A stretch of 64,000 nt of DNA from Dehalococcoidia bacterium (lineage in GTDB: Bacteria; Chloroflexota; Dehalococcoidia; UBA2979), in the NCBI GenBank assembly GCA_965219085.1, contig OZ244720.1, positions 1,504,001-1,568,000 of the forward strand. The letters are read 5' to 3'. Below are positions 50,924 to 59,626 of this stretch, one piece after another. How positions within the stretch are numbered: the stretch's first letter is position 1; the number at the start of each line of letters is the position of its first letter. The translations under genes were made by a program, and so were the position numbers. The notes beneath the pieces were generated by a model. It saw only the letters and a list, made by a program, of their open reading frames with translations. It did no database searches and was not told the DNA's origin.

Positions 50924-52618
<1,695 letters not shown>

Positions 52619-53157: not shown

Positions 53158-53427
53158 ATGAGCGAGCAGGCCGGCGAGTACGGGGCCGGACAGCCACGCG
53201 GCGAGGAGTGGGCAAGCGGGCGGCGCGTGCGCCGGCTGCGCCGCCACCTCGGCGAGACGCAGGCGGCGTTCGCGGACCGCCTCGGCACGAACCAGCAGAC
53301 GGTGTCGGAGTGGGAGCGCGGCGCGCGCCAGCCGCGGCGCATGGCGCGGCGCCTGCTGCACCTCGTCGCCGAGCAGGCCGGCTACTACGACGCCAGCGAC
53401 GGCGCCGCCGCCGCCGAGGACGTGTAG
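53158..53427 (+). CDS. XRE-family HTH regulator
   Basis: VRRLRRHLGETQAAFADRLGTNQQTVSEWERG. Confidence 0.88.
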   Translation: MSEQAGEYGAGQPRGEEWASGRRVRRLRRHLGETQAAFADRLGTNQQTVSEWERGARQPRRMARRLLHLVAEQAGYYDASDGAAAAEDV

Positions 53428-53431
53428 GCGC

Positions 53432-54538
53432 GTGGTCACCACCGTCCCCCCGCCGCGCGCCGTCGCCCGCACCGCCGCTCCGCTGCGGGAGCGGGAGCTC
53501 GTTGCGCTGTGGCTGCTCGGGCGCGTGCCGGCGGAGCTGCTGCCGTGGCCGCTGCTGCGCGCGGGTCGCGCCGGGCGCGGGCCCGGGCCGGACGTGCGCG
53601 AGGCCGCGTTCGCGGGCCCGGACGGCGTGGTGCTGTGCGGGGACGTCGAGGTCCACCTCGCGGCCAGTGACTTCGTGCACCACGGCCACCTCGCCGACCC
53701 GGCGTACGCGGGCGTCGTGCTGCACCTCGTGTGGGCGGACGACCGGGCGCTGCGCGGCACGCCGCAACCGCTCCCCGGGGGCGCGAGCGCGCCGGCGGTG
53801 GAGGTCGGGCCGGCGCTGGGCCGGGACCCGGATCGCCTGCGGCGGCTGCTGCGGCGGGGGCCGCGCGGCGCGGAGCCATGCGCCGCCGCGTCGCGGGCGC
53901 GCGGGATCGCGGCCACCTCGGAGCTCGTGCGCGCGGAGGGCCGGCGTCGGCTCGCCGAACGCGCGTGGCGCGCCGCCGAACTCGCCGCGGAGCACGGCTG
54001 GGACGGCGCGTGGGACGTGCTGCTGGACGGCGCGCTGCACGGCAGCGCCGGACGCCGTCGCGAGACCCCGGAGGAGCGCGCCGGGCTCGCGGCGCGGCTC
54101 AGTGCAACGCTGTGCTCCCCTGCACGCGGGGATACCCCGTGTCTTCCTTCCCGCGGGGATACCCCGCGGGGGCCGGACGTGCTGCGCGCCCTGCGCGGGC
54201 ACGCCCTGGACGGCGGGGCGCGGCCGCGCGCACTGATCGCGGCGCTCCGCGGCGAGGGCGCGGTCGGCCCGGGCCGCGCCGCCGAGCTGGGCTGGAACGC
54301 CGCGCTGCCGCTGCTCGCCGCCGCGGCCGCCGCCTACGACGACGCCCCCCTCGCGCGCGCCACGGCGGATCTCGCCGAACGCTGGCCGGCGCCGCGTCCC
54401 TACGGCCGCACGCGCGCGCTCGCGGGCCTGCTCGGCCCGCCGCCGCGCGGCGCCGGCGCGCAGCACGCGCAAGGCCTGCTCCACCTCCAGGACCTGTGGT
54501 GCGAACGCGGCGGCTGCGGGACCTGTCCGGTCTCATAG
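53432..54538 (+). CDS. DUF2851-like protein
   Basis: GPD...GDVEVH..ASDF..HGH..DPAY..V.LH.VW; C-terminal QGLLHL...C....C..CP. Confidence 0.75.
   Translation: MVTTVPPPRAVARTAAPLRERELVALWLLGRVPAELLPWPLLRAGRAGRGPGPDVREAAFAGPDGVVLCGDVEVHLAASDFVHHGHLADPAYAGVVLHLVWADDRALRGTPQPLPGGASAPAVEVGPALGRDPDRLRRLLRRGPRGAEPCAAASRARGIAATSELVRAEGRRRLAERAWRAAELAAEHGWDGAWDVLLDGALHGSAGRRRETPEERAGLAARLSATLCSPARGDTPCLPSRGDTPRGPDVLRALRGHALDGGARPRALIAALRGEGAVGPGRAAELGWNAALPLLAAAAAAYDDAPLARATADLAERWPAPRPYGRTRALAGLLGPPPRGAGAQHAQGLLHLQDLWCERGGCGTCPVS
54113..54170 (+). repeat. Two in-frame 27-nt units carrying GCGGGGATACCCCG
   Basis: TGCTCCCCTGCACGCGGGGATACCCCG and TGTCTTCCTTCCCGCGGGGATACCCCG (CSPARGDTP/CLPSRGDTP). Confidence 0.85.
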
Positions 54539-54807
54539 CAGGATTGGCCTCGCGTGGGTCGATGAGGTGGGGACCGTGATCATGCATGGACTGCACGGTC
54601 GTTGAGCGCCCGGCGGCGACAGCCGCTCTTTGCTGGAGGGGCCTCGGCCCAACCTGCGACGGCAAGGCGCTGCGTCTGTTTCGCCCACCCCGTCATTGAG
54701 GATCCGGGTCCGGGTGCCCCTTGTGCCTGGGAGTGGCGCTGCCTGACGGCCTCGGCGACTCGTGCGCGAACTGACGCCCTCGGCGGCTGGGGCCGTAGAA
54801 TCAGCGC

Positions 54808-54904
54808 GGGAGTGGATGGTGTCCGGTGGCGCCCGCGGTCTTCAAAACCGTTGTGGGGCTGCGTCGCAGTCCCGGGTGGGTTCGACCCCCACGCACTCCC
54901 GCCA
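54808..54904 (+). tRNA. selC: tRNA-Sec (UCA)
   Basis: CT-TCA-AA anticodon loop, 6-bp D-stem with 4-nt loop, long variable arm, GTGGG-TTCGACC-CCCAC T-arm, GCCA end; TAGAAT -10 upstream. Confidence 0.95.
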
Positions 54905-55018
54905 GGCGGCACTGCTGCCCTCTTGCAGGAGTTGGGCTGGCCGTGCGACGGGTCGGAGAGTGCTTGGTCGGCTGGTTGCGCGCCCACCGATCGAGCAGCG
55001 GCGCAGCCGGGCACACGT

Positions 55019-56008
55019 CTACGAGTTCGAAGCGGAGTCCTGTGGCAGCGCTCCAAAGATACGATGCGCAAGCGTGTTGAGCTCTGTCAGTTCATCACGC
55101 GTCGCGTCGCCTCGGTGTGTCGCCGCGATTGCTATCTCGGACACCGCCACGTGGTCCTTGTTCGCGGGATCGTAGTCGGGGAGATCCACGTATTCGGCTA
55201 CGCTCACGCCGAGAGACAGTTGGGATGCATAGGCGCCGATGGCGTCTGCCGCGACTGGTGCATTGAGCAGCCCCGCAATGAACGAGGCCGGCCGTTCTTC
55301 GTCAAACGGAATGAAAATGAAGTAGAGCTTGTGGTCCGGAATCACCGGGCGCCTGCCCAACCCTTTGATATCAACCGGGCCAGCCAGGGCGGCGATGAAC
55401 CTCCCGCCACTCATCTCCCTCCAAACAACCTTTGTAGGGGCTGAAGGTGTAGGGCCCCGTCGACCATAGCGACCAGTAGGGTTGGCCTCTTTGGTCACGC
55501 CGGTAGCTCCCTCGAGCTTCCAGGTGAGAGCGGAAGGCCGAAAGGAACTTGTGCATACCTGGGCTGTTGGCGGGCAAGTCAGGATCTCCATGCATCCCTC
55601 GTTGAGGTACGAGCACTTGCAGGTCCTCGTCTGTCTTGGCTTGGAATCGAGATACGCCGCGTCCCCGAAGTAGTGGGAACACGTGCTCCGCTTCAACCTG
55701 TCCCGTGCGTCGTGCAACTCCCTTCGTGCGTCCGGCGCTCGGCTCGTTGGTAACGGTTGCAACGCCGTTATCAATCCCGTCGACGCGCACCCAATAGATT
55801 CCATTGCGGTCCGTCGTGATCCCTTTCCGGGCCCGGTAGCTTGTCTTACCAGCGCCGAAGACAGACTTCCATAGAACCAGATCGGATTGCGAGCCGCGCA
55901 GCCATGGGCCTGCGTCTGAACCTGGAACCGGCTCGGCGAAGTAGACGGTGGCAGTGGTTGTCTCCGACAGGCGCAAACCCGATGCGACCGATGCAATCAC
56001 AGCGTCGC
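55019..56008 (-). pseudogene. C-terminal (specificity) fragment of a type IIG restriction-modification enzyme, frameshifted near 55432
   Basis: FPLLRGR...GPYTFSPYK|VVWREMS...IPDHKLYFI...GLLN split across two frames; lower GC. Confidence 0.7.
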
Positions 56009-56086
56009 TGACCTGACCCCTTGAAACGGGACCACCGTTGATGAGAGTCCTTTGGCCCATGAAAGTGGGTGGAGGAGGACATCACG

Positions 56087-56365
56087 GTGAAACGACGCAG
56101 GCACACGCCCGAGCAGATCGTGCGGAAGCTGCGCGAGGTGGAGCGGCTGCTCGGTGAGGGGCAGACGATCGCCGAGGCGGCGAAGCAGGTCGAGATCTCG
56201 GAGCAGACCTACCACCGCTGGCGCAACCAGTACGGCGGGATGAAGGCCGACGACGCCAAACGGCTGCGCGAGCTGGAGCGCGAGAACGCCCGGCTGAAGC
56301 GGATCGTCGCCGACAAGGAACTCGAGATCGACGCGCTCAAGGAGATCGCCCGGGGAAACTGGTAA
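56087..56365 (+). CDS. IS3 transposase OrfA
   Basis: RRHTPEQIVRKLRE HTH plus leucine zipper; G-GGA-AAC -1 slippery site at 56353-56359. Confidence 0.93.
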   Translation: MKRRRHTPEQIVRKLREVERLLGEGQTIAEAAKQVEISEQTYHRWRNQYGGMKADDAKRLRELERENARLKRIVADKELEIDALKEIARGNW

Positions 56366-57219
56366 GCCCGTCGCGCCGGCGCGAGGCAGTCTGCATGTTG
56401 CAGGACCGCCTCGAGTTGTCGGAACGGCGGGCATGCCGGGTCACCGGCCAGCACCGCTCCACACAGCGCCGCCTCCCGGTGCGCGGCCGCGGCGACGACG
56501 CGCTGCGCGCGGAACTCCACGCCTTCTCGCGTGGCCACCCCCGCTGGGGCTACCGCCGGGCCTGGGCGACCTTACGCGAGGAGGGATGGGGCGTGAATCG
56601 CAAGCGGGTGCAACGGCTCTGGCGTGAAGAAGGGCTGCGCGTCCCGGTGAAATGGCGCAAGCGTCAGCGCCTGGGGGACTCGGCGGTGCCCGCCGCCAGG
56701 CTGCGCGCTGAGCGGCCGAACCACGTCTGGGCGCTGGACTTCCAGTTCGACCAGACCGCGGACGGGCGGGTCCTGAAGCTGCTCAACATCGTCGACGAGC
56801 ACACACGGGAGGCGCTGGCGATCGTGGCCGCCAGGAGCATCAACGCCGACGCCACGGCCTCAACGCTCGACGGGATCGTCGCCCGGCGCGGGACGGCGCC
56901 TGGGTACATCCGTTGCGACAATGGGCCCGAGCTCACGGCCAACGCGCTGCGCGACTGGTGCCGGTTCAGCGGTACGGGCAGCAGCTACATCGAGCCCGGT
57001 GCGCCGTGGGAGAACCCGTACGTGGAGTCGTTCAACGGCCGGCTGCGCGACGAGTTCCTGCCGGTCGAGCAGTTCGACAGCCTGCTCGAGGCGCAGGTGC
57101 TGCTCGAGGACTGGCGGATCGAGTACAACACGAAGCGCCCGCATAGCAGCCTGGGCTGGCTCGCCCCGGCTGCCTACGCCGAGCGCTGGGAGACTCAGCT
57201 ACACGCTGGACTCTCATAA
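56356..57219 (+). CDS. IS3 transposase OrfB (DDE), expressed by -1 frameshift
   Basis: WALDF, RCDNGPEL, N.YVESFNGRLRDE. Confidence 0.95.
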   Translation, partial: KLVSPSRRREAVCMLQDRLELSERRACRVTGQHRSTQRRLPVRGRGDDALRAELHAFSRGHPRWGYRRAWATLREEGWGVNRKRVQRLWREEGLRVPVKWRKRQRLGDSAVPAARLRAERPNHVWALDFQFDQTADGRVLKLLNIVDEHTREALAIVAARSINADATASTLDGIVARRGTAPGYIRCDNGPELTANALRDWCRFSGTGSSYIEPGAPWENPYVESFNGRLRDEFLPVEQFDSLLEAQVLLEDWRIEYNTKRPHSSLGWLAPAAYAERWETQLHAGLS

Positions 57220-57248
57220 GCGGTGGACTCGCGAAGGGGGTCCGGTCA

Positions 57249-57581
57249 CTCCTCTGGCCTGCCTTCCTCCCGCGCGAGCAGTTGGCAGTACTCGACGGCT
57301 TGGGCGCGCGCGTGATCTAGTTGGGCCGAGCCTTCTCGGACGAGGCTGCGCGGCGACTCCTACTCGATGACCACAGCCCCGTGCGCGACGTCCAAGAATC
57401 GCGGCCGCCGCGGGTCGCCAGTCCTGAGGAGTTGGTCAAGTTGGAACGGAACCCAAGGGAGGCCTGTTTCCGACGCTGCCTTTGAGAGAGCGTTCTCGAT
57501 CTCATGCCTCAGCGTGGCCTCGTTGCTTGCGTGGGCTGTCGCATGCCCGACCGTACGGACAAGGTCAGTGACTGCGCTAAT
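57249..57581 (-). pseudogene. N-terminal nuclease fragment of the same type IIG R-M enzyme
   Basis: GGAGG SD then ATT; FLDVAHGAVVIE*ESP (TAG where Tyr is expected), AQAVEY motif; cut off by the IS. Confidence 0.65.
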
Positions 57582-57670
57582 GAGGATCCTCCCGTCGGCC
57601 GTGTCGCTACTGTGGGTATCGCGCGTGGGGTCAGTCGGTTTGATAGCGGCAGGTCGCGCGGCCAGCCAAC

Positions 57671-58753
57671 CTAGTTTGCCCTCCCGAGGCGATCCAGCAG
57701 GCCGTCCTCCCAGGCCCAGTCGAAGGGCTGCGACTCGTACAGGCCCTCTGAGCGGTACCACTCGTAGGTCTGCTCGACGGCCGAGCGGAACGTGTAGGCG
57801 GGCGCCCAGCCGACGTCGCGGTGGAGCCGCTCGATCGAGAACACCGTGTTCTCGTTCCAGCGATGGATGTACGGCGCCAAGCGCTGAATCATCTGCTGGA
57901 GGTACGGCAGGTTGCGCTGGCTCACAGGCGCGGTCACGGCGCCGAAGTTGCCCGGCTCCTCGGGGTCGTCGGCGAGCGGGATCTGGCCGTCGTAGACGGC
58001 GTCCATCGTGTCGGGCGGGATGAACACCTTGTCCGCCTCGACGCCGAGGATGTCGGCGAAGGTGTCGACGTAGCCCTCGTCGCTCCAGTAGTCGCGGCCG
58101 GTCAGGTTGTAGCGCTTGCCGTAGGTCTGCGGCTGCTGCATGAGCATGCGCATCGCGGTCGCCTCGTCGTCGACGTGGCCGATCTGGCTGAGCGTGGTGC
58201 CGTCGCCGGGGATGAGCACGGGCCGGCCCAGCAGCAGGCGGCTGAACATGCGCTGCTCGCGCACGGGGATGATGTTGTGCGGCCCGAACACCATCGAGAA
58301 CGGCACGATGGTGGCGGGGAAGCCGTTCTGGCGGTACTCGCGCAGCAGGATCGCCTCGCAGGCCAGCTTGTCGAGGCCGTACTGGGACTGCCGCTCGGTG
58401 CCGTCGACAGGCGAGCTCTCGCGGATCGGCAGCAGCTTCGTGGCGGCGTAGATCACGGTCGAGCTGGCGAAGATGTAGTGGCCGGTGCGGCCGCGGAAGA
58501 TGTCGACCATGCTCTCGACGTCGGCCGGGGTGTAGGCAGAGATGTCCTGGATGCAGTCGAACTCCTCGCCGGCGAAGACCTCGCGCATGCCGTCGTGGTC
58601 GGTGCGGTCGCCGTAGAGGCGGCGCACGCCGCGCGGCAGCGTCGCCTCGGTCTGGCCGCGGTTGAAGATCGTGACGTCGTGGCCGTGCCTGGCCAGCTCG
58701 TGGACGAGGGCGAGCCCGTTGAAGCGCGTCCCGCCCATCACCAGCACCTTCAT
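57671..58753 (-). CDS. NAD-dependent epimerase/dehydratase family protein
   Basis: VMGGTRFNG, FNRG, YGLDK, GH.DD.A. Confidence 0.9.
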   Translation of the reverse strand: MKVLVMGGTRFNGLALVHELARHGHDVTIFNRGQTEATLPRGVRRLYGDRTDHDGMREVFAGEEFDCIQDISAYTPADVESMVDIFRGRTGHYIFASSTVIYAATKLLPIRESSPVDGTERQSQYGLDKLACEAILLREYRQNGFPATIVPFSMVFGPHNIIPVREQRMFSRLLLGRPVLIPGDGTTLSQIGHVDDEATAMRMLMQQPQTYGKRYNLTGRDYWSDEGYVDTFADILGVEADKVFIPPDTMDAVYDGQIPLADDPEEPGNFGAVTAPVSQRNLPYLQQMIQRLAPYIHRWNENTVFSIERLHRDVGWAPAYTFRSAVEQTYEWYRSEGLYESQPFDWAWEDGLLDRLGRAN

Positions 58754-58805
58754 CGTGGCCTCCTTGCGTGTTGGGTGCGTGTCGTCTGGCGCTTGTGCCG
58801 TTAGC

Positions 58806-58835
58806 CGGTTTCCCTCAACGCGGGGATACCCCGCG
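58806..58835 (+). repeat. Third copy of the GCGGGGATACCCCG element
   Basis: CGGTTTCCCTCAACGCGGGGATACCCCGCG; supplies the last codons and stop of the hydrolase. Confidence 0.8.
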
Positions 58836-59498
58836 GGCCAGGGCCTCGGCGAAGAACGGCCCGACGGCCTGCTCGATCGCGTACTCGTCGCCCCACCAGA
58901 AGTGGTCGGCGCCGGCGACGACGCGCACCGTCGCCTCGCCCGCGCACGCCGCGGCGAGGGCGTTCAGGCCGTCCTCGCTGCTGCCCTCGTCGTCGCTGCC
59001 GGAGATGAGGAGCAGCGGGCCCGTGTAGGCCCCGAGGGTTTCGCTCGCGCCCTCGGCCATCATCAGCGGCAGCGAGATCAGCGCGAGCGCCGGCAGCGCG
59101 TCGCTCACGACGCCCACCACCGTGCCCGCGCCGAAGGAGTAGCCGGCGAGGGCGACGCGGTCGGCGTCGATCTCGTCGAGGGTGGCGACGTAGGCGAGCA
59201 CTGTCGTGGCGTCGGTGAGCGCCTCGTCGCGGTCACCGGCGACGCCGTCGCTGGCGCCGACGCCGCGGAAGTTGAACATCACGGCGGCGATGCCGCGCGC
59301 GACGACGCTGGAGGCGACGGCGGCGACGACGTTGTTGTGCATCGACCCGCCGTACTGCGGGTGCGGGTGGCAGATCACGACCGCGGGGAACGGGCCTGTA
59401 TCTGCATGCGGGGATACCCCGCTGGCTCCCTCGGGCAGCGTGAGCACGCCTTCGAGGCTGGCGCCGTCGCTCTCGATGGTGATGCGGCGTTGCGGCAT
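58815..59498 (-). CDS. Alpha/beta hydrolase
   Basis: CHPHPQYGGSM.N.VV, FNFRGVG.S, GYSFGA, GADHFW. Confidence 0.9.
   Translation of the reverse strand: MPQRRITIESDGASLEGVLTLPEGASGVSPHADTGPFPAVVICHPHPQYGGSMHNNVVAAVASSVVARGIAAVMFNFRGVGASDGVAGDRDEALTDATTVLAYVATLDEIDADRVALAGYSFGAGTVVGVVSDALPALALISLPLMMAEGASETLGAYTGPLLLISGSDDEGSSEDGLNALAAACAGEATVRVVAGADHFWWGDEYAIEQAVGPFFAEALARGVSPR
59394..59423 (+). repeat. Fourth copy of the GCGGGGATACCCCG element
   Basis: GCCTGTATCTGCATGCGGGGATACCCCGCT; encodes SGVSPHADT inside the hydrolase. Confidence 0.8.
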
Positions 59499-59626
59499 GG
59501 CGGCTCCCCCGTGGGCTTGCGGTGCGCTCGGTGCGCTCAGTGCGGCGCAGCCTACCGCATCGGCGGGGCGTCGCGACGCGACGGTGGCGAGGGTATGCTC
59601 GCGCTCCGGAAAGAGGAGGGTGAACA

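Follow-up and report, generated by a model that had tools for sequence, protein, structure and literature searches.

A 27-nucleotide palindromic repeat, probably mobile, lies in frame in unrelated genes of a Dehalococcoidia bacterium

How does one short palindrome come to lie in two unrelated genes on opposite strands of the same chromosome? This question is raised by a 64,000-nucleotide stretch of a Dehalococcoidia genome (the window; positions 1,504,001-1,568,000 of a single 3.306-Mb contig with 69.8% G+C), where the 14-nucleotide sequence GCGGGGATACCCCG recurs within a DUF2851-family gene and an alpha/beta hydrolase gene. The initial annotation of the window offered three readings of these copies: a frame-preserving mobile palindrome of 27 nucleotides (nt) like those of Rickettsia, ectopic CRISPR repeats, or a protein-binding site flanking a selC island. 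We found that the copies belong to a family of 88 units at 41 loci of the genome that holds the window (G000; sister genomes of the same genus are referred to as G007, G008, G012, G014, G015, G016 and G018). We regard them as probably constituting a genus-specific miniature mobile palindrome, related in kind to repetitive extragenic palindromes (REPs) and Rickettsia palindromic elements (RPEs), that is spread by hairpin copying with the help of a trans-acting enzyme and is mainly selfish DNA.

The window contains four exact copies of the 14-mer, at 54126, 54153, 58820 and 59408, all on the + strand, compared with a mean of 0.00 in 100 dinucleotide shuffles. This agrees with the number and single orientation first reported. 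A search allowing up to three mismatches returned 17 matches versus 17.3 expected, made up of the four exact copies, three reverse readings of the palindrome and ten background matches. Since all 17 are accounted for, there is no extra copy in the window; a partial match once suggested at 50990-51007 is not among them and is not a copy. The copies and their two host genes are as follows.

54111..54170, + strand: two head-to-tail units with different 5' linkers and a CGGG tail (14-mers 54126-54139 and 54153-54166), in frame and sense in the DUF2851 gene
58808..58837, + strand: single unit (14-mer 58820-58833), antisense to the hydrolase gene, of which the last six codons read RGVSPR
59400..59427, + strand: single unit (14-mer 59408-59421), antisense to the hydrolase gene, adding SGVSPHADT
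53432-54538, + strand: host gene 1, DUF2851-family protein of 368 amino acids (third-position GC frame plot, gene caller, Pfam PF11013 at E 9.5e-14)
58815-59498, - strand: host gene 2, alpha/beta hydrolase of 227 amino acids (frame plot, gene caller, Pfam Peptidase_S15, Hydrolase_4 and Abhydrolase_1)

The hosts are thus unrelated genes on opposite strands. Alignment with orthologues showed that the repeat units are additions to both proteins, as had been proposed, and that the sites are empty in most orthologues. The DUF2851 protein has orthologues in 19 of 19 genomes of the genus. Its two-unit array encodes CSPARGDTPCLPSRGDTPR and accounts for 19 extra residues in G000; G018 has eight extra residues (one unit), and the other 15 of the 17 orthologues have none. 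For the hydrolase, 17 of 19 genomes have a full-length orthologue (E <= 4e-68), and G000 was aligned with 16 orthologues of the genus. The nine-residue block SGVSPHADT occurs in G000 only, with a decayed version, SGESPHEGD, in G018, and is absent from the other 15 of 17. At the DNA level the five next-closest orthologues (85-86% identity) have a gap of exactly 27 nt at this block, so that the unit at 59400..59427, with ends uncertain by about 1 nt, represents a net insertion of 27 nt. The unit at 58808..58837 carries the hydrolase stop codon (58815-58817) in its linker. The resulting C-terminus, RGVSPR followed by the stop, is private to G000, and the other 16 orthologues end in AL(A/S/T/E/R)(G/S/E/V) with no extension. 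In an AlphaFold model of the hydrolase (16 sequences, mean pLDDT 78.4), residues 26-34 are predicted to lie in a loop between strands 13-20 and 37-44. Predicted confidence falls below a pLDDT of 50 at residues 26-32, within the block, and at residues 224-227, the extension after the last helix.

Other length changes were seen in the same genes. The G018 orthologue of the DUF2851 protein contains an unrelated in-frame tandem repeat (several copies of NGHPT) elsewhere in the protein, at a position that is a gap in all other orthologues. In G016, G008 and G014 the last ~35 nt of the hydrolase gene (GGGCCGTTCTTCGCC...GGCTGAG) are repeated in tandem once or twice right after the stop codon. This small duplication is at the same spot as the palindromic unit of G000.

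Counting k-mers in the whole genome revealed 70 exact copies of the 14-mer (32 on the + strand and 38 on the - strand), where 0.02-0.14 are expected under Markov models of orders 1-5. There are 22 further copies with one mismatch. Four of these, GCGGGGATACGCCG, lie in an IS110-type insertion sequence (IS) and were left out of the unit count, giving the 88 units with at most one mismatch, which are arranged as 21 singles and 20 arrays of 2-11 units. Each unit is about 27 nt long. It consists of a loose pyrimidine box (YYCCCY), two to four variable bases, A-Y, a hairpin formed by GCGGGG, the loop ATA and CCCCGC, and a CRGG tail. In position matrices made from all units and from the outer flanks of the 41 loci, information is confined to positions from about -11 to +17, counted from the 14-mer. 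Within the flanks, C is found at -7 in 30 of 41 loci, A at -2 in 40 of 41, and C or T at -1; the pyrimidine-rich 5' flank described for the window copies extends genome-wide over positions -11 to -5. The core reads GCGGGG-ATA-CCCCG, followed by C, A or G, G, and G. It is perfect in 70 of 88 units, and the linkers vary. Among the 72 hairpins of G000 with the pattern GCGGGG-NNN-CCCCGC, 66 have an ATA/TAT loop. The stem is 6-7 bp long with a 3-nt loop, and single units are predicted to fold as RNA at about -14 to -15 kcal/mol.

Units in arrays are spaced 25, 27, 28, 29 or 30 nt apart, with 27 the commonest, and the arrays are strictly head to tail: among neighboring pairs within 300 nt, 48 have the same orientation and 0 the opposite one. 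Some arrays have identical linkers, such as the 11 units of 25 nt at 1,465,655; others have differing linkers, such as the two DUF2851 units and six units in a gene for a NUDIX-DinB protein. The unit is free of stop codons in all six frames, which read RGDTP, AGIPR, TRGYPA, RGIPA, GVSPR/H and PAGYPR. A one-mismatch copy, GTGGGGATACCCCG, was also seen at 1466344 of G000 in a hairpin-like stretch upstream of a gene for an Rrf2-family regulator. This stretch is partly kept in G018, G016 and G007; in G014 and G008 it is deleted. The copy is possibly a decayed unit of older date, or else a regulatory hairpin unrelated to the family.

We examined how far the repeat extends beyond this genome. An exact 17-mer was found in 13 of 18 sister species; outside the genus it was absent from all 6 further genera of the family and all 16 further families of the class that were sampled, and a reversed-pattern control gave 0 matches in all genomes. 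Four sister genomes with low or zero copy numbers contained no variant-loop families. Scanning 185,579 species genomes with a 20-mer returned at least 103 stretches; among the 80 listed, 74 came from metagenome-assembled genomes of Dehalococcoidia/Chloroflexi and 6 were single matches in unrelated taxa. Viral contigs gave 0 matches to the repeat, and a literature search returned no paper on it or on palindromic repeats in Dehalococcoidia.

Thirteen loci were compared with relatives; the window sites are among them, and for others syntenic DNA came from five close relatives (G018, G014, G016, G008 and G007). Seven loci are private to G000, and six are common to at least one relative and differ in unit number. 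The private loci are both arrays in the MurT gene, the C-terminal unit of the hydrolase, single units in the genes for dihydropteroate synthase (DHPS; +27 nt) and the Lhr helicase (+27 nt), the LigD array (+108 nt), and a two-unit array in the gene for an ImuB-like polymerase (+60 nt; four relatives compared, with a contig break at the site in G016). Overall, a net gain of 27 nt was found at three single-unit insertions. Among the shared loci, the intergenic array of 11 units is represented in G018 by three decayed units, and the other four relatives have an empty site. The locus at 1,471,931 is filled in G000, G016 and G018 and empty in three relatives, and the G018 copy has a double change that preserves the stem. 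The NUDIX-DinB array has six units in G000, three in G018, two in G014, one each in G007 and G016, and none in G008. Metagenomic contigs were also compared with the window. One, from a run that may be the source sample, is identical over 53400-54837, one that is ~95% alike keeps the DUF2851 array without gaps, and another has 27 gap letters somewhere within 58818-59544, from which we draw no conclusion.

No target-site duplication was detected at the insertions: the best 8-mer match between flanks averaged 5.17 within loci versus 5.24 between loci. A target motif, CCSTCGG, had been suspected from five junctions and is unsupported by the 41-locus position matrix. Insertion 3' of CCCCG as a rule fits the Lhr site and could not be shown at the DHPS and LigD sites. 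The short-read assembly of G016 (contigs C12 and C13) breaks exactly at the site of the ImuB-like array. This break suggests that copy counts in the fragmented sister assemblies are probably underestimates.

The 41 loci were placed on a gene map built from codon log-odds trained on long open reading frames (ORFs) with high third-position GC, a crude caller that yielded 2,694 genes covering 83% of the genome. By this map 23 loci are coding (13 sense and 10 antisense), one lies over a gene start and 17 are intergenic. The coding share is below the coding fraction of the genome (P = 5e-5). It is far above what the name extragenic palindrome implies. Hosts identified with Pfam include, besides the MurT (two loci), DHPS, Lhr and LigD genes, those for cysteinyl-tRNA synthetase (CysS), the ImuB-like Y-family polymerase, the NUDIX-DinB_2 protein, class II ribonucleotide reductase (two loci), a MoxR ATPase and an ECF sigma factor. 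Coding arrays reach six units, and the LigD and NUDIX-DinB arrays sit between Pfam domains. Seven of the 23 coding loci are within 51 nt of a stop codon, and many intergenic copies lie 12-47 nt past one. The 11-unit array is truly intergenic since the stop codon upstream of it is kept in five relatives.

Coding loci use all six frames. Within coding arrays 19 of 19 spacings are divisible by three, compared with 11 of 28 elsewhere; counted per array, all spacings are divisible by three in 9 of 9 coding arrays versus 6 of 11 others (Fisher P = 0.03). Periods of 25, 28 and 29 nt occur only outside genes. Orientation is unbiased with respect to transcription (13 sense and 10 antisense coding loci; 6 and 5 among co-directional intergenic loci), and no strand bias is seen relative to replication (23 versus 18). 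Loci are clustered along the G000 chromosome, with 14 adjacent gaps of 10 kb or less where 4.7 are expected (P = 0.0002), and 17 of 41 fall in the 13% of the genome (1.13-1.57 Mb) around dnaA (1443985) and the GC-skew minimum. An origin-centered distribution does not hold as a general trait, as it was seen in G000 and the clusters of G014, G015 and G012 are not centered on dnaA.

We searched for an enzyme that might move the repeat. None of the 19 genomes of the genus contains a match to the Y1_Tnp/RAYT family (PF01797), in a search whose control matched 6 of 14 reference genomes. Among 87 proteins encoded around seven clusters, a Pfam scan identified no recombinase or nuclease that recurs beside the copies. 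One insertion sequence is itself touched by the repeat. This is an IS110-family element of 1.58 kb, present in about five copies (G000 3084420-3086004, with other IS110-type copies near 756303, 751255-752438, 1081856-1083099 and 3172964-3174361), with a transposase ORF of ~404 amino acids. The C-terminal tail of the transposase, ..RRIPASAG.., is encoded by a one-mismatch copy of the repeat (four such copies), and the 14-mer marks the exact start of one truncated IS110-type copy. Directly adjoining the IS110-type element is a second, different IS, which has at least 15 copies. We rejected a link in which the IS110 element would target the repeat or carry it at its ends, because the repeat lies only inside the transposase gene and the ends and flanks of the IS are without it.

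Genome comparison shows that a defined unit of about 27 nt has appeared at new sites in a lineage-specific manner, without target duplication, preferentially near older copies and head to tail. The Rickettsia-like mobile palindrome of the initial annotation is therefore the reading that the 41 loci, the empty sites in relatives, the stop-free frames and the coding spacings in multiples of three bear out. In the mechanism that we propose, the whole unit would be copied in the form of a single-stranded DNA hairpin, which a trans-acting enzyme would recognize and paste; this enzyme would be other than a known RAYT/IS200-type transposase. Insertion beside an existing unit may give arrays of non-identical units, and replication slippage may give arrays of identical ones. 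Insertions in protein loops, linkers and C-termini would survive if the frame is kept; those that break the frame would be purged from genes and persist only between them. The visible effect would be short peptide blocks or new C-termini on otherwise conserved proteins.

Several observations weigh against a mobile palindrome of this kind. As no mobilizing enzyme was found, we infer rather than observe enzymatic copying and pasting. The linker is far more variable than the core, which recent copying and pasting in its simple form would not predict unless the core suffices for mobilization. At three single-unit loci common to G000 and G018 the cores differ at 4 of 42 positions, compared with 25.7% (621 of 2,419) of four-fold sites (P = 0.008), and this lower divergence hints at constraint or homogenization over pure neutrality. 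Polymorphism for insertion or excision within a population was not shown by metagenomic contigs of four runs, which are fragmentary and unable to resolve it. The in-frame rule is partly circular, as a frame-breaking array would stop a gene from being called. The gene calls come from a crude caller, with six of the 23 coding loci checked by protein or DNA alignment with orthologues. Finally, in other species 10 of 80 judged loci are deep in an ORF and no coding array is present among 92 sampled, so that the frame rule is seen in G000 only.

An origin without an enzyme is possible, although we consider it unlikely. Replication forks would stall at the GC-rich hairpin, and microhomology-mediated template switching from a nearby copy, together with slippage, would add units. 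The lack of a detected transposase and of target duplications is consistent with this, as are the strong local clustering and the exclusively head-to-tail arrays. Several empty sites resemble the end of the repeat, including the Lhr site, CCCCGCGGG in G014, and the junction of MurT site 1, which shares CGGG; G000 also encodes Ku and LigD. Template switching does not readily account for the sharp ends of the repeat at 41 loci, where no information beyond -11/+17 is found and no donor flank is carried, or for a net insert of exactly 27 nt at three independent single-unit sites. Moreover, at 70% G+C such short GC-rich strings as these microhomologies are common, and the CCSTCGG motif found no support.

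We give somewhat less credence to a view in which the hairpin is the unit of an unknown mobilization or homing system. Such a system would use no Y1 transposase, make no target duplication and prefer the neighborhood and the 3' side of existing copies, and its core would be kept beyond neutral expectation. A preference for the 3' side would explain why arrays of non-identical units are strictly head to tail. The host might also have partly domesticated the hairpin, as a protein-binding or hairpin site that is concentrated near the origin of replication. If this were true, the repeat would be the smallest known coding-compatible mobile module.

It is more doubtful still that the hairpin is primarily used by the host and maintained by selection, either as a site for a chromosome-organizing or regulatory protein or as an RNA hairpin that protects or ends transcripts, with its spread being secondary. 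The near-invariant core beside variable linkers, the low divergence of shared cores and the stem-preserving double change in the G018 copy of locus 1471931 would fit such a role. So would the concentration of loci around dnaA, the many intergenic copies shortly after stop codons and the predicted folding energy. By contrast, the absence of orientation bias with respect to transcription or replication, the decay of copies in relatives and their absence from several sister species argue against it, as does the lack of origin clustering in G014, G015 and G012. Arrays of up to 11 units and insertions in essential genes are also unexpected of operator-like sites.

The initial annotation had also suggested ectopic CRISPR repeats, which in this case would be stray or degenerate repeats of type I-E and could be cleaved by Cas6e in mRNA. 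A unit length of 27-30 nt is near that of CRISPR repeats, and the copy at 54112-54139 can be aligned with the I-E repeat quoted there, a resemblance that rested on this one hand-picked copy; however, G000 has no match to Cas1 (PF01867) or to Cas6e (PF08798, a weak search with a control of 1 in 14 reference genomes), the array periods of 25-30 nt are the unit itself and leave no spacers, 11 of 11 candidate regions are whole-period tandem repeats rather than CRISPR arrays, three sister genomes that bear Cas1 contain repeats unrelated to this one (periods of 73-75 and 65-66 nt), 1 of 70 units has an I-E-type stem (CCCCGC within 12 nt upstream of GCGGGG), and no Rfam family matches the copies at E <= 10. 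Membership in the type I-E CRISPR repeats is refuted, and we regard any such origin as extremely improbable.

The third proposal of the initial annotation was a clustered protein-binding site flanking a selC island. The tRNA part of that proposal stands: a tRNA-Sec gene lies directly downstream of the DUF2851 gene at 54808-54904 on the + strand (ARAGORN; Rfam RF01852, 73.7 bits). The association with the copies does not: they are members of a family spread over the whole genome, and most orthologues lack a unit at each of the four window positions, so that nothing ties them to the island. The copies might still bind a protein. The 2.7 kb past the tRNA-Sec gene has a weak coding signal and contains an IS3-type transposase pair (HTH_Tnp_1 at 56069-56362 and rve at 56479-57216). 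The very high summed contig depth of this pair in metagenome runs indicates that it is multi-copy. The distance between the DUF2851 and hydrolase genes is only ~2 kb in G014 and G018, and G000 thus carries extra DNA here.

The family bears on the question of how REP-like hairpins without a transposase spread. It is small (41 loci), and we call it recent because 7 of the 13 examined loci occur in one species only; the genus has many sequenced members that keep the empty sites, which makes junctions, timing and candidate enzymes directly comparable. It is a natural source of in-frame length variation in LigD, ribonucleotide reductase, MurT, CysS and dihydropteroate synthase. The repeat can mislead CRISPR and tandem-repeat finders, and its variable arrays could be strain markers for uncultured Dehalococcoidia.

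Compared with known systems, the repeat resembles the type I-E CRISPR repeat in its length (~28-29 nt for the latter) and in a GCGGGGAT-type 3' half, and differs from it in having no spacers or cas genes and in that the 3' arm pairs downstream rather than upstream. It is far below the size of miniature inverted-repeat transposable elements, which have terminal inverted repeats that match an IS and a target-site duplication, and it makes no such duplication. Mobile-looking repeats of ~21-27 nt with no known transposase were reportedly described inside conserved sequences of cyanobacteria by Elhai et al. in 2008. The family reported here would share these features with the small dispersed repeats of cyanobacteria, in another phylum and with another sequence.

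The likeness to RPEs is in the manner of insertion. RPEs are described in PMC10969869 and PMC3733652 as selfish elements that lie in frame in unrelated conserved genes as tolerated peptide segments, the classic ones being ~150 bp long with a conserved peptide in one frame. Similarly, conserved genes carry the palindromic unit in frame where their orthologues are without it (those for the hydrolase, the DUF2851 protein, MurT, DHPS, Lhr, LigD and the ImuB-like polymerase). Unlike RPEs, with their ~100-150 bp and family peptide, it is 27 nt long, yields six peptides according to frame, forms tandem in-frame arrays and resides in a high-GC, free-standing Dehalococcoidia host.

REPs and REPINs are short GC-rich palindromes of 20-40 nt that are mobilized by RAYTs, which are IS200/IS605-like Y1 enzymes (PMC3116915, PMC3733652). 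The present family is likewise a short dispersed palindrome that has tens of copies, is patchy across related species and is often found just downstream of genes; like the REPs of those accounts, it is sometimes clustered and lacks target duplication. It differs in that no RAYT is encoded in the 19 genomes of the genus and in that the GTAG tag of REPs is lacking (2 of 88 units have CTAC, which is GTAG read on the opposite strand, before the stem). REP dimers are predominantly head-to-head or inverted, with head-to-tail pairs absent or negligible according to PMC3733652, whereas 0 of 48 neighboring pairs are inverted here, and 23 of 41 loci are coding in contrast to the extragenic location of REPs. 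Head-to-tail arrays, a high intragenic share and the lack of a detected known mobilizing enzyme thus set the family apart within the REP/RPE kind.

The same source reports that REPs also occur inside genes, many of which serve replication and repair, and it describes CGTC-tagged REPs that lack a transposase (PMC3733652). The latter include RPE-4 and RPE-6 of Rickettsia and dRS3 of Neisseria, have stems of 8-9 bp, loops of 4-5 nt and head-to-head dimers (Table 1 of that paper), and are not listed for Chloroflexi in that paper. Our family differs from CGTC REPs in its stem of 6-7 bp, its loop of 3 nt and its head-to-tail arrays, and has GACG/CGTC, overlapping the stem, in only 22 of 88 units. 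It is like them in that no associated transposase was found, that intragenic in-frame units occur, and that its hosts include the replication and repair genes for LigD, Lhr, the ImuB-like polymerase, ribonucleotide reductase and the NUDIX-DinB protein. The intragenic REPs and the transposase-less CGTC REPs of that survey are the closest published parallels to the palindrome of this window.

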